Positions 54,094 to 58,703 of a DNA stretch of 64,000 nucleotides are shown here, piece by piece (within the stretch, counting starts at the first letter, position 1; each line of letters starts with the position of its first letter). The DNA lies in NCBI RefSeq assembly GCF_011045215.1, contig NZ_CP049201.1. One strand, 5' to 3'. The stretch is from Escherichia coli (GTDB lineage Bacteria; Pseudomonadota; Gammaproteobacteria; Enterobacterales; Enterobacteriaceae). The notes beneath the pieces were generated by a model. It saw only the letters and a program-made list of their open reading frames with translations. It did not search any database and was not told the DNA's origin. Made by a program: the position numbers and the translations under genes.

Positions 54094-55425
54094 TTACTGG
54101 ATGAATGACATTTGATTAATATATTTTATCAATAACTCTCTGGGTGTAGTACTCCAAAAATTTAGGTGTTCATAATCAGTATAAACATTGGTGAATTTTT
54201 TAAGTTCTTCATCACTTTTAGGGGCAAATCGCTCATTAAGAGTAATACTGTCTTTAATTATTCCGAAGAATACAATAGATATTTCAGGAATTTGCGATCT
54301 TCTCTCATAAGAATAAGGTATTTCTTTTATGTTAAGCAGATCTGCTAAATGAGATATAGATTCTGCGGTAATTTCTTGTTTTAGTTTTTCCTTGTCACCA
54401 AAGCAATGTATGAAGACAGCTACGACAAAGATCTTATTTATTAAAGGATCACTGCTTTTGTACTCATCGTCGTTTAATAGTTGAAAAATGTTAAGATTGC
54501 GTGAAAAAGTTTGTGTTTCACGTAAGGATAAGTTGGTTCGTTGAATTAAATCACGGATAAATCTACCAGATAAACTATTAATTTCATTTAATGATTTTGT
54601 CTTGTCTACAAGGTAATTCCAATATATAACAGATGTTTTACATACGACGTGACCATTTATTAAACATGTGTCTGGAAGCGTGATGGTATATTTTATAAAC
54701 TTGTCAAGATACTTTTGTGAGTTAATACTATAACCATAAATATGATTTATCGATGCTTTTAATTGTTCTGTGTTTGTAACTAAAATAAAAAAGACATTAT
54801 TGATGTCAAAAATGTGTTTTATTGTTTCAATGACATTTGTTGAAAAACTCGGCTTACATCGGTCTAATTCATCAATTATAATTACTATCTTTTGACTTTC
54901 TGAAATGCTTTCGATGCAAGATTTAAGTGAATTTATGTTTTTCTCTGATTCCATATGGTCTTCAAGCAAATTTTCAATAGTCCCATCTATTGCTGCATTG
55001 CTTGCTTTCTTCATCGCATCTTGGAATTCTTCGGAAACTTCACTAGCCTCCTGTCGTAAAAACCAACCTGCACCAGCTTTTAGTACCGTTTTTAAACCAA
55101 AGCGAATTGCAGGAAGAGATCTCTTAATGAAGTGTTGTTTTTCTTCCTCAGGTAAAATGCTGGCAATTGCAGAGGTTATGAGAAGTAATGGAGATTCTGC
55201 ATGATCCCCTTTAAAGGCATCAATATAAACAACTTTAGATTCAGTTTCTTGCTCAATAATGAGATTTTTCAGTTTGATACTAAATTCTGTTTTCCCTGTT
55301 CCCCATGCGCCGTCTATTACCAGTGGTGAAATGTCTGCCTCTGGTTTTAGCAACTTGATGATATTTTCAGCGATGTTTCTGCGTTGGAACTCGTCACGTT
55401 CAGTGAAAGATAGTGTATCTAACAT
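54094..55425 (-). CDS. KAP-family P-loop NTPase (prophage cargo; candidate defense protein)
   Basis: 443 aa; Walker A DGAWGTGKT, Walker B IIIDELDR; AT-rich; antisense to the late operon. Confidence 0.75.
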   Translation of the reverse strand: MLDTLSFTERDEFQRRNIAENIIKLLKPEADISPLVIDGAWGTGKTEFSIKLKNLIIEQETESKVVYIDAFKGDHAESPLLLITSAIASILPEEEKQHFIKRSLPAIRFGLKTVLKAGAGWFLRQEASEVSEEFQDAMKKASNAAIDGTIENLLEDHMESEKNINSLKSCIESISESQKIVIIIDELDRCKPSFSTNVIETIKHIFDINNVFFILVTNTEQLKASINHIYGYSINSQKYLDKFIKYTITLPDTCLINGHVVCKTSVIYWNYLVDKTKSLNEINSLSGRFIRDLIQRTNLSLRETQTFSRNLNIFQLLNDDEYKSSDPLINKIFVVAVFIHCFGDKEKLKQEITAESISHLADLLNIKEIPYSYERRSQIPEISIVFFGIIKDSITLNERFAPKSDEELKKFTNVYTDYEHLNFWSTTPRELLIKYINQMSFIQ

Positions 55426-55721: not shown

Positions 55722-56048
55722 ATGCCTCATAACCCAAATACTTGGCTGGACTTGGTCCAGAGCTGGTGGCGTGGAGACACACCGCTGGGCGCAGTGATTA
55801 TGTCGATTGTTATGGCTGGTTTGCGTATCGCCTACTTTGGTGGTGGTGGCGGCTGGAAGCGAAAAACGCTCGAGATTTTGCTCTGTGGCGCTCTGACTCT
55901 GACTTTTGCATCCGCGCTTGAGTATGTCGGATGGCCTAAATCACTTTCTGTTGCCATTGGTGGTGGCGTTGGGTTGATCGGTGTCGATGCTATTCGTGGG
56001 GCTGCAATGAGAGTAATCGGTAATAAGTTTGGTGGCTCTAAGGAGTAA
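55722..56048 (+). CDS. S: holin
   Basis: 108 aa, hydrophobic helices, charged C-terminus; directly upstream of endolysin. Confidence 0.6.
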   Translation: MPHNPNTWLDLVQSWWRGDTPLGAVIMSIVMAGLRIAYFGGGGGWKRKTLEILLCGALTLTFASALEYVGWPKSLSVAIGGGVGLIGVDAIRGAAMRVIGNKFGGSKE

Positions 56049-56528: not shown

Positions 56529-56973
56529 GCTGGTTATCGTTGCTTTCTTCGTTACTGTCATTGGTTCTTTCATCTGTTCAGTGAATCGTTACCACAATAA
56601 AGCCATTGAATACAAAATGCAGCGTGATGAGAATGCTATGGCATTAGATTCGGCTATGGCGACCATCTTTGATATGCAGAAGCGTCAACGTGACGTAGCA
56701 GAACTTGACGCCAGATACACAAAGGAGCTTGCTGATGCTAATGCGACTATCGAAAGTCTCCGTGCTGATGTTTCTTCTGGGCGTAAGCGCCTGCAAGTCG
56801 CCGCCACCTGTGCAAAATCAACGACCAGAGCCAGCGGCATGGGCGATGGAGAAAGCCCAGGACTTACAGCAGATGCTGAATTCAATTATTACCGTCTCCG
56901 AAGTGGAATCGACAGGATAACCGCACAGGTTAATTACCTACAGGAATACATCAGAACTCAATGCATGAATTAA
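56512..56973 (+). CDS. Rz: i-spanin Rz
   Basis: 153 aa, N-terminal TM, coiled-coil body; overlaps R stop. Confidence 0.8.
   Translation: MKLSYKLVIVAFFVTVIGSFICSVNRYHNKAIEYKMQRDENAMALDSAMATIFDMQKRQRDVAELDARYTKELADANATIESLRADVSSGRKRLQVAATCAKSTTRASGMGDGESPGLTADAEFNYYRLRSGIDRITAQVNYLQEYIRTQCMN
56735..56920 (+). CDS. Rz1: o-spanin Rz1 (lipoprotein embedded in Rz, +1 frame)
   Basis: Lipobox GVSAC followed by Pro-rich segment; start codon choice uncertain. Confidence 0.6.
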   Translation: MLMRLSKVSVLMFLLGVSACKSPPPVQNQRPEPAAWAMEKAQDLQQMLNSIITVSEVESTG

Positions 56974-57582
56974 AAGAGGCAGATTGATCGTGTTTTCGAA
57001 GTGTTATACCACGCCCGTTCTGTTAATTTGGCAAAATCTGTTCTGATGCAATGAGTATCGAAAGATTTATTGGACTGGTTGCTTTGGTTATCACTGTTAT
57101 CGCTGGAGTTGTTGGCCTAGGGCGTATCCGTGGCACTAGTAAAAGAAGAGGTTAAAACTGCTCTGTTATACACTGAAGTTAACGCAGCGGCTAAGCACTC
57201 AGCAGCAGGACACCGTGTAGAGGCAACGGAAGAGGCCAGAAATATACAGCAGACTATTAACCATATTCCTGGTGACTCTGTTGAGCGCGGTATGCATAAG
57301 AAATACAAACGTACAATTTGAAGTGGTATATTTTTCTTGTTAGTAGATGAATATAATATACCACACAGAATACGATATAATTATTGCTCATGCTTACCTA
57401 AATATGAAAAACAATAAAGTTATAAGTAGACAAGTGTTTTGTTACTTTTAATAATTGATGTGATGTATATATTAAGATTGAAAAATTTAATCATTCTTTC
57501 CACATATAAATTAAGTGGTTCCCTTAGCTTGTCATTTTTGATGATAAGTGAGAGAATATGAACATTATATGATGGAGATAAT

Positions 57583-57894
57583 ATGTCAAACATAAAAATC
57601 AAACAAGCTATTGAAAAGATTGCGGAGTTCAGAGCAGCATCTGCTGCGATGGCTGATGCTCACATGGTTCTTATTACAGAGCTATTGAACTCAATTGAGG
57701 ATATCCGCAAAAACTCTGGTGATAATCTCTCTGAGTTTGAAAAAGGACAGGTTGCTCTCTACATAAAAATTAGCCCAGTTGTGAAAAATGGAATTTCGAG
57801 TATTGAAAAATATAATGAGTCTTTAAGTTCAGACTATGTTGAGGCTATGAACTCCTTATCTAAAATTGCGGGAGGGAATTCAAATGTCGATTGA
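57583..57894 (+). CDS. hypothetical protein (first gene of AT-rich three-gene cargo operon)
   Basis: 103-aa ORF with RBS, predicted helical; AT-rich. Confidence 0.4.
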   Translation: MSNIKIKQAIEKIAEFRAASAAMADAHMVLITELLNSIEDIRKNSGDNLSEFEKGQVALYIKISPVVKNGISSIEKYNESLSSDYVEAMNSLSKIAGGNSNVD

Positions 57895-58270
57895 AGATGT
57901 TGGAAGCATCCTTGATAGATTAAAAGTAGCCAGGATCGAAAATAAAAAAATTGAAGAGTCAGCTGGAAAAGCAGAGGAAAATGCTGTTAACTCTAAGCAT
58001 ACTGATGGTAAAACACGAAGCGCCTTAACTATTACGTTTCTCTGGTTCTTTTTTTGCCTTCTTATTTTTAGCTGTCTTTTTGTTCTTTGGTATAATAATT
58101 CTGTTGTGAATTGGGCTTTAGAGTTAAAGAGCAAAGGTGTTGATGATTACGTTCAATATTTAAAGCCACTCGAGCTGGAAAAGGTATTGTCAATAATGAT
58201 TACTGCCCTTGGTACTTCATTAGGATTTATAATTGGGTATTATTTTAAGGATAAAGAAAATCATTCTTAA
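57884..58270 (+). CDS. hypothetical two-TM membrane protein
   Basis: Start MSIEDVG overlapping upstream stop; two hydrophobic helices (LTITFLWFFFCLLIFSCLFVLWY, VLSIMITALGTSLGFIIGYYF). Confidence 0.4.
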   Translation: MSIEDVGSILDRLKVARIENKKIEESAGKAEENAVNSKHTDGKTRSALTITFLWFFFCLLIFSCLFVLWYNNSVVNWALELKSKGVDDYVQYLKPLELEKVLSIMITALGTSLGFIIGYYFKDKENHS

Positions 58271-58315
58271 TATAGAGTTATCTCTAAAGATAACGAATTT
58301 TAATAGGAGGGTAGA

Positions 58316-58618
58316 ATGTCTGAACTGAATTATGAAGCAATAGGTCGCTGCAAAATCCTTAATGAAAAGATCAAAGATCTTCATGCTGAACGAATGAAAG
58401 CTATTGGTGATTTACGTACTGCTGTCTATGCCCTTCATCAGAAAGGGAATGTAAACCTCATCCCACCAGAAATTGTTGAATTCAACCCCCAATCGCTTAC
58501 ATCCCTTGTAGAGAAGGTTGGTCACTATGATGGTGAGCTGATGCGAGCTGTACATGAGTACAACAACTGGTGTGTAGAAGCAGGCGAGAAACCCGTAAAA
58601 CTTATAAAGCTAGACTGA
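58316..58618 (+). CDS. hypothetical protein
   Basis: 100-aa ORF with GGAGG RBS; followed by hairpin plus T-run at about 58630-58665. Confidence 0.4.
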   Translation: MSELNYEAIGRCKILNEKIKDLHAERMKAIGDLRTAVYALHQKGNVNLIPPEIVEFNPQSLTSLVEKVGHYDGELMRAVHEYNNWCVEAGEKPVKLIKLD

Positions 58619-58703
58619 AACAACAAATTTATGCAAATCATTAGCCTCGCACATGCGGGGCTTTTTTATGCGCACCACACATGCACATCAAAGAGAGTCT
58701 TCA

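Follow-up and report, generated by a model that had tools for sequence, protein, structure and literature searches.

A two-gene cargo cassette and a packaging-neighbourhood passenger in a variable slot of an Escherichia coli prophage

We analysed three small open reading frames (ORFs) at positions 57583-58618 of a 64,000-nt stretch of Escherichia coli contig NZ_CP049201.1 (the whole stretch is hereafter called the window). The ORFs, named g1, g2 and g3 in order, are harboured by an e14/HK97-like (e14/ymfL-like) lambdoid prophage, between the spanin gene Rz and the packaging genes. Judging from comparative sequence analysis, two independent accessory units have been combined in a hypervariable slot, which makes the locus a 2+1 mosaic. 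One unit, g1-g2, is a mobile, compositionally foreign and translationally coupled pair which represents a so far uncharacterised cargo family. The other, g3, is a passenger gene associated with packaging genes, moved by recombination to a position 45 nt behind g2. An earlier note on this DNA had described a three-gene operon; this holds for the local arrangement in this prophage but not as one conserved module.

The Rz–HNH slot and its mosaic filling

The three ORFs are co-directional and located between Rz and the HNH/terminase genes, as the earlier note had stated. On the plus strand, g1 (57583-57894) encodes a soluble protein of 103 aa, predicted to form a helical hairpin; g2 (57884-58270) encodes a predicted inner-membrane protein with two transmembrane segments (TM1 and TM2); and g3 (58316-58618) encodes a highly conserved protein of 100 aa modelled as a helical hairpin, belonging to the family of Sb55 from Salmonella phage ST64B. 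The sizes proposed originally (103, 129 and 100 aa) stood for g1 and g3, while g2 was corrected to 128 aa. Its reading frame is open from 57866, but translation was judged to begin with the ATG at 57884, at a distance of 7 nt from the ribosome-binding site GGGAGGG (57870-76), and the identical gene of E. coli VTB97420v is likewise annotated by PGAP as 128 aa. The g1 and g2 genes indeed overlap, by 11 nt (ATGTCGATTGA), and a strong Shine-Dalgarno sequence was present ahead of each of the three genes. As length, order and overlap of the ORFs are kept across dozens of divergent loci, we consider all three to be real genes. No terminator was found within the 45-nt gap between g2 and g3. The previously noticed hairpin with a T-run after the third ORF was detected by sequence scan at 58643-58662 on the plus strand (feature 58643..58671) and is part of the conserved backbone just 5' of HNH. 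It probably closes the local g1-g2-g3 transcription unit, the three genes being probably co-transcribed up to 58643. The AT-richness ascribed to the whole locus was true of g1-g2, with GC content of 0.30-0.36 compared to approximately 0.55 in the terminase region (0.28-0.36 over 57250-58300), while g3 was less AT-rich, with an intermediate value of 0.42-0.47.

The gap between Rz and HNH is a true variable cargo slot. When a 3.2-kb query reaching from Rz to TerS was compared with 5,426 complete E. coli genomes, its flanks were matched in about 2,714 of them and its full length in a single one. Homology to common prophages ends at 56964/56973 on the Rz side and restarts at 58643 (the hairpin) or 58704 (the start of HNH), and the filling of the slot between these breakpoints (56974..58642) is a mosaic insert of 1.67 kb. 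When 57330-58660 and 56974-57330 were compared separately, each was matched over its full length in one of the 5,426 genomes. In related prophages the same slot harboured alternative fillings, namely two tiny ORFs, a 229-aa hypothetical protein or a Rha-family regulator, in agreement with the proposal that the junction of lysis and packaging genes serves as a cargo slot. Comparison of close relatives, which had been suggested as a check, revealed that closely related prophages differ in the presence or absence of g1-g2 between shared backbone genes, as morons do.

Two further observations concern this slot. The hairpin at 58643-58662 coincides with the exact restart of homology to prophages carrying other cargo and thus delimits the slot on its right-hand side as a recombination boundary. 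Furthermore, two Klebsiella prophages contained a gene of the Acb2/Tad1-hairpin family between the lysis genes and g1-g2 (L007, 3784-4068; L008, 3775-4068). Members of this family are anti-CBASS/anti-Thoeris sponges; in these prophages the hotspot thus also bears counter-defence cargo.

As for g3, it was found together with g1-g2 solely in near-identical loci of Escherichia type (L001, L013-L016), and none of the remaining approximately 40 g2 loci contained it. Its homologues formed 28 clusters with a mean column identity of 77%, compared to 36% for g1. Those examined, from Salmonella ST64B (sb55), E. coli M9, Proteus, Hafnia and Yersinia, adjoined the 5' edge of the HNH-TerS-TerL-portal block and were not accompanied by g1-g2. 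Their distance to HNH was 30-65 nt in ST64B, E. coli M9, Hafnia and Yersinia, and the equivalent position was occupied in Proteus. Homology to ST64B and M9 starts abruptly at 58302, 14 nt ahead of the g3 ATG, and in ST64B it runs through HNH. The closest known counterpart, Sb55 (a member of the uncharacterised family phrog_4827), shares 86% protein identity with g3 and the same position directly 5' of HNH and a P27-type terminase; in contrast to it, g3 is no longer preceded by its native upstream region, having been joined behind g1-g2. A structure predicted for g3 with AlphaFold2 was a two-helix hairpin (helices 6-43 and 58-86, predicted local distance difference test score, pLDDT, of 89), for which Foldseek against PDB retrieved generic coiled-coil hairpins only, none of them at E<=0.001.

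The earlier note had assumed that g1, g2 and g3 act as one system, composed of a membrane protein and two soluble partners. The genes are contiguous here, with a short g2-g3 gap and a single terminator after g3, and the trio recurs in the other Escherichia-type loci mentioned above. Nevertheless, this assumption is highly improbable in view of the independent occurrence of the two units, the homology block of g3 that begins ahead of its start and continues into HNH, and its different GC content and much slower evolution; moreover, in one sister allele (L016) g3 carries a nonsense codon and g2 is still intact. Linkage of homologues to packaging genes, named in the note as evidence that would speak against a cargo role, was encountered in part, i.e. 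for g3 only, in the form of the HNH-TerS-TerL synteny. However, most E. coli prophages possessing the same HNH-TerS-TerL genes lack g3. Together with the stop at codon R26 in the sister allele (see below), this indicates that g3 is dispensable for packaging; most likely, the gene is an accessory to the HNH/terminase neighbourhood without being essential.

The g1-g2 family and its genomic contexts

Close homologues of g2 formed 129 clusters, distributed in Enterobacterales, Vibrio and one assembly labelled as Pseudomonas aeruginosa. A full hidden Markov model search through 1.84 billion representative sequences yielded a g2 superfamily of 234 clusters at 50% identity, nearly all of 100-150 aa, which extends to distant metagenomic relatives. 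Its common motifs are (D/E)xKTRS ahead of TM1 and GxxLGF(I/V)xGYYFK at the end of TM2. Owing to fast evolution of g1, a word-seeded search with this protein retrieved its own cluster only. We therefore compared g1-g2 loci from an annotated phage (P7641), assemblies, 41 IMG/VR contigs and six species-representative genomes. In every locus with available upstream sequence (about 45 loci), a g1-like helical ORF of approximately 100 aa was present directly 5' of g2. The two genes overlapped by 8, 11 or 14 nt or were separated by a gap of at most 13 nt, an overlap of 8-14 nt being found in most loci. Three distant members of the superfamily were also looked up, and each was immediately preceded by an ORF of 94-101 aa. 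All this points to g1-g2 being an old and conserved two-gene unit. A natural g1-g2 fusion of the Rosetta-stone type was sought among the longer proteins of the superfamily, and one candidate (P0186, 228 aa) was rejected, as its N-terminal extension was of low complexity and a separate 94-aa ORF was located upstream.

The cassette is AT-rich wherever it occurs: its GC content was 0.32-0.40 in all 38 family loci, compared to 0.41-0.59 in the flanks. A GC-rich hairpin followed by a T-run was detected within approximately 100 nt after the g2 stop codon in about 28 of 38 distinct loci, often at a distance of 2-30 nt. On the opposite side, the best sigma-70-like match usually had its -10 element (TATAAT, TAGAAT or TATATT) ending 25-35 nt ahead of the g1 ATG, and sequences upstream of g1 scored higher as promoters than internal segments of equal AT-richness (Mann-Whitney p=7.6e-5, a value that is only indicative as the loci are related). 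In the window, a candidate sigma-70 promoter (TTGTCA-17-GAGAAT with an upstream TG, 57529..57557, plus strand) was found by consensus scan inside the AT-rich spacer 57322-57582. Its -10 element ends 25 nt ahead of the g1 ATG, i.e. in the same place as the boxes of most homologous loci. The promoter-like tract of the earlier note was therefore corroborated only by this recurrence of the -10-like box across the family, the scan of the window itself having remained at chance level (see below).

In tailed-phage loci, the cassette is nearly always located after spanin genes and before packaging genes, and its partners on both sides vary. It was preceded by three types of lysis cassettes: i) a lambda holin with GH24 endolysin, ii) holin_8/holin_3_7 with GH19 endolysin, or iii) M15 with DUF2570/LysC. 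Likewise, three terminase types followed: HNH with P27 TerS, DUF1441 with GpA, or Terminase_2. Several copies had no lysis genes nearby. One of these belongs to the remains of a Serratia prophage close to icd, and another is part of an island in Vibrio that adjoins a filamentous prophage of CTX type (Zot, RstB, Rep). A third neighbours an IS1595 element and is encoded on the strand opposite to that of a phage replication region, and a fourth has a chromosomal, non-phage context. In species-representative chromosomes g1-g2 was rare, amounting to six loci among 100,044 species genomes. No clear defence island surrounded the Serratia and Vibrio copies; their neighbours were remains of phages, such as a Mom-like protein and a member of a tail-assembly family, and one HNH/REase-like gene. 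Small TolA-like ORFs were noticed near both of these copies (L005 7897-8394 in Serratia; L009 3734-4090, minus strand, in Vibrio), which may be a coincidence.

Taken together, AT-richness in all loci, downstream terminators, the -10-like box and the presence/absence polymorphism correspond to the anatomy of a moron. The g1-g2 pair can thus be described as a self-contained, AT-rich, moron-like cassette, with a putative promoter box, coupled genes and, in most relatives, a terminator.

Several Escherichia alleles of the cassette have decayed. A sister allele differing by five single-nucleotide polymorphisms (L016, L077-L080) contained the substitution CGA→TGA at 58391, which introduces a stop at codon 26 of g3. 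In L077-L080, one T of a T7 homopolymer within the part of g2 encoding TM1 (58049..58055, plus strand, as identified by alignment of alleles) was additionally lost, and the resulting frameshift left a g2 product of 74 aa (P0046). This truncated version is the commoner one, being present on at least 41 contigs, compared to three contigs for the cluster of intact g2 (P0001). Another allele (P0002) carried an in-frame deletion of five residues in TM1. In every decayed Escherichia allele, g1 was intact. Two independent lesions of TM1 are compatible with g2 being costly to carry.

Some other features of the window should be mentioned. The insert contains a frameshifted remnant of a small gene encoding an N-terminally TM-anchored protein (57051..57321, plus strand), now split into a 34-aa ORF (57051-57155) and an annotated 63-aa ORF (57130-57321). 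The rebuilt 90-aa protein matched phrog_1026 ('Rz-like spanin') with E 6.5e-14 over positions 5-84 of 85, and it was 34% identical (E 5e-12) to the product of a 91-aa gene located after the GH19 endolysin gene in Klebsiella prophages with g1-g2. This resemblance suggests that the insert was derived from a g1-g2-bearing phage similar to these Klebsiella prophages and equipped with GH19 endolysin. Directly after the stop codon of the 63-aa ORF, a perfect 10-nt inverted repeat (GTGGTATATT … AATATACCAC, with a 22-nt spacer) is present at 57323-57364; it lies at the left edge of the AT-rich spacer and is not followed by a T-run. No meaningful direct or inverted repeats were found to flank the cassette. 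Upstream neighbours of the insert are genes for a lambda-family holin (55722-56048), GH24 endolysin and Rz, and downstream neighbours are HNH, P27-type TerS, TerL and portal genes. A second cargo gene, encoding a 443-aa KAP-family P-loop NTPase, is located on the minus strand at 54094-55425, between the Q antiterminator and holin genes. Its GC content is 0.26-0.37, and it gave a weak QatA-like match (ATPase of the Qat defence system; E 5.5e-9), far under the family cut-off.

Properties of the g1 and g2 proteins

Hydropathy analysis revealed hydrophobic segments at residues 47-69 (TM1) and 100-120 (TM2) of g2 and none in g1 and g3. The earlier description of a two-TM protein flanked by soluble helical ones was thus borne out, the helical hairpins being those predicted by AlphaFold2. 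The g2 protein is composed of a variable N-terminal helix, presumably cytoplasmic, TM1, a loop of approximately 30 aa and a glycine-rich TM2 ending in invariant GTSLGFIIGYYFK, followed by the charged C-terminal tail FKDKENHS. Conservation is distributed very unevenly along the protein. In 36 g2 sequences of 40-60% overall identity, TM2 with its C-terminal flank (ALGTSLGFIIGYYFK) was invariant, and the first approximately 45 residues were essentially without conservation. The mean pairwise distance was 0.41 in the TM core of g2, 0.79 in its N-terminus and 0.75 in g1, and the distances of g1 and of the g2 N-terminus were correlated also when the TM core was controlled for (partial correlation of 0.50). 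This contrast between an invariant TM2 and an N-terminus that co-varies with g1 might reflect a division of the pair into effector and regulator parts. The spacing of glycines in TM2 (GxxGxxxGxxxG) resembles a glycine zipper, a pattern typically found in helix oligomers that are tightly packed and often form channels.

The pair was modelled with AlphaFold2 as a fused single chain, g1-(GS)15-g2, using a paired alignment of 31 rows (mean pLDDT 77, predicted template modelling score, pTM, 0.52). In the model, g1 forms a hairpin of helices 2-45 and 51-96 with pLDDT of approximately 90, and g2 consists of a long helix reaching from the N-terminus through TM1, a loop and TM2. When the fused model was submitted to Foldseek, the best matches were two-TM cation channels of CorA/Mrs2 type, with a long stalk helix leading into TM1; none of them was significant.

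Searches of protein families assigned no function to the three proteins. The statement that none of them belongs to a recognised family was right as far as Pfam and NCBIfam (no match for g1, g2 or g3, nor in Pfam for an alignment of 61 superfamily members) and PADLOC (no significant match) are concerned, but all three match PHROGs of unknown function: phrog_21707 (g1), phrog_20796 (g2) and phrog_4827 (g3). The sole PADLOC match of g2, to 2TM_IV, was weak and non-significant (E=0.0029, 15 bits) and covered the TM region only. Sequence searches of PDB with single proteins and profiles gave spurious matches to repeat proteins, designed proteins or TM segments only. At the level of phage proteins, g2 matched Klebsiella phage P7641, g3 matched ST64B-like Salmonella phages and g1 matched none; megablast of the locus against phage genomes gave no match. 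Literature search for the WP accessions and PHROG identifiers retrieved nothing.

Possible roles of g1-g2

The g1-g2 pair probably acts on the cell membrane. Tentatively, and at somewhat less than an even chance, we favour the explanation that g2 is a membrane effector controlled by g1 which confers abortive infection or superinfection exclusion on the lysogen. According to this model, the pair would be transcribed from its own promoter in the lysogen, and g2 would be inserted into the inner membrane with both termini in the cytoplasm. The g1 hairpin, as an inhibitor or sensor, would hold the variable cytoplasmic N-terminal helix of g2. The invariant TM2, with its pattern reminiscent of a glycine zipper (GxxGxxxGxxxG…YYFK), would allow g2 to assemble with itself into a pore or lesion; alternatively, g2 would plug a conserved membrane process. 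The pair would protect the lysogen against other phages, be it by abortive infection with a triggered membrane lesion (similar in logic to Rex) or by a block of genome entry.

Several systems may be compared with this model. In logic and order of genes, RexA/RexB of lambda and pairs of a holin with a cytoplasmic antiholin (T4 T/RIII) come closest to g1-g2; in genomic anatomy, it corresponds to a moron such as HK97 gp15. Homology tests placed it in none of these families. The moron concept originated from the comparison of HK97 and HK022, and its examples include the exclusion moron gp15 of HK97 and bor and lom of lambda. Similarly to lambdoid morons, g1-g2 is an extra unit between backbone genes, lacking in close relatives, with foreign composition, a promoter-like box, a terminator and a small membrane protein. 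However, it consists of two coupled genes rather than one, and it bears no similarity to gp15, Bor, Lom or Cor. With RexA/RexB of lambda it shares the location on a prophage and the gene order, in which the gene for a cytoplasmic partner lies upstream of, and overlaps, the gene for a small polytopic membrane protein; in both cases the membrane partner is conserved and is the presumed effector. On the other hand, no homology to RexA/RexB was found in Pfam, NCBIfam or PADLOC, g2 has two TM segments instead of four, g1 has 103 aa compared to approximately 279 aa of RexA, and g1-g2 is located in the late region instead of the immunity region. T4 Imm is, like g2, a small phage inner-membrane protein with two TM segments, which makes a block of genome entry a plausible activity. 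In contrast to T4 Imm, P22 SieA and HK97 gp15, to which g2 shows no homology and which act alone, g2 is always accompanied by g1, and its variable parts are predicted to be cytoplasmic, not periplasmic. Relationship to CBASS-type 2TM effectors was rejected, the 2TM_IV match being non-significant and no cyclase being present in the neighbourhood. Membership in the known membrane-toxin families of toxin–antitoxin systems (GhoST, Hok/Sok, SpoIISAB) was rejected as well, since no matches to them were found in Pfam, NCBIfam and PADLOC; the g1 hairpin is also unlike the GhoS fold.

A number of points weigh against the proposed immunity function. The evidence for a promoter is consensus matching alone, and within the window the number of promoter-like matches (6, compared to 5.7 expected from shuffled sequences) was not above chance. 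The predicted contact between g1 and g2 comes from the fused single-chain model with pTM of only 0.52. The rapid change of g1 and of the N-terminus of g2 may have nothing to do with an arms race and may simply follow from coiled coils being weakly constrained. In the libraries searched, g1-g2 showed no homology to characterised defence, exclusion, holin or toxin families. Since the commonest Escherichia allele has both g2 and g3 inactivated, any benefit of the cassette must be dispensable. Finally, in tailed-phage loci the pair is mostly placed right after spanin genes on the same strand, with a gap sometimes not exceeding 110 nt, and a late, lysis-related function fits this position equally well.

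Such a function would make g1-g2 a late-expressed lysis accessory, in which g2, similar to a holin or antiholin, is bound at its N-terminus by g1 in the manner of T4 RIII and holin T, and which tunes the timing or inhibition of lysis. We consider this explanation unlikely, though still a serious rival. The post-spanin arrangement applies to about 30 tailed-phage loci, often with gaps of at most 110 nt, and in the window the remnant gene upstream of g1, too, bears an annotation as a component of a lysis cassette. Like class II holins, g2 is small, has two TM segments with probably both termini in the cytoplasm, a charged C-terminus and a glycine-rich TM2, and lies at the lysis cassette. Moreover, g1 might correspond to a small helical cytoplasmic partner as in T4 T–RIII, since it probably binds, as far as can be judged from the model, the cytoplasmic N-terminus of g2. 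Nevertheless, a separate and complete holin-endolysin-spanin set is present next to the pair, and three unrelated sets accompany it in different phages, so that a specific partner is unlikely. In the Serratia and Vibrio contexts, as well as in loci L073 and L075, the pair occurs without any lysis genes, and its presence varies among near-identical prophages, all of which keep a complete lysis cassette. Its own terminator, -10-like box and foreign composition, together with no match to holins in PHROG or Pfam, are further arguments against a role in lysis.

Selfish maintenance provides another explanation, with g2 as a membrane toxin and g1 as its protein antitoxin, without any anti-phage role. 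Like toxin–antitoxin cassettes, the pair consists of small genes in a similar order, is tightly coupled in translation and moves between contexts, and inactivating mutations strike g2 and spare g1. We regard an addiction pair as clearly unlikely, however, because g2 shows no similarity to GhoT, Hok, TisB or SpoIISA in Pfam, NCBIfam and PADLOC, and because nearly all copies of the pair reside in DNA of phage origin, at one preferred slot, the few loci in species genomes notwithstanding. It should be added that a toxin–antitoxin pair may at the same time confer abortive infection. Improbable, too, is a lysogenic-conversion function unrelated to phages, such as a regulated ion or solute channel or a modulator of envelope stress. 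The moron layout and the top, albeit non-significant, Foldseek matches to CorA/Mrs2-type channels would agree with it, but no sequence signal was obtained in PDB or Pfam and no stable chromosomal gene was found.

A broader version of the immunity explanation is rather unlikely as a whole. It assumes that g1-g2 founds a widespread, as yet unrecognised two-component family of phage-borne immunity systems, in which a two-TM 'mini-holin' effector with an invariant glycine zipper (GxxLGFxxGYYFK) would be gated by a hypervariable cytoplasmic helical hairpin acting as a sensor of incoming phage components. Such a family would be a miniature, non-homologous counterpart of RexAB, spread over Enterobacterales, Vibrio and distant metagenomic lineages.

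The two-gene cargo family itself is well defined and represents a good experimental candidate, although it is not surprising in kind. As this 2+1 mosaic is not a three-protein system, experiments should target g1-g2 alone. If g1-g2 defends lysogens, it would be a compact membrane-effector system of approximately 230 aa in total, with a clear split into effector and regulator and a sharply defined TM2 motif amenable to mutagenesis. If it tunes lysis instead, it would represent a new class of regulators common to phages with unrelated lysis cassettes.

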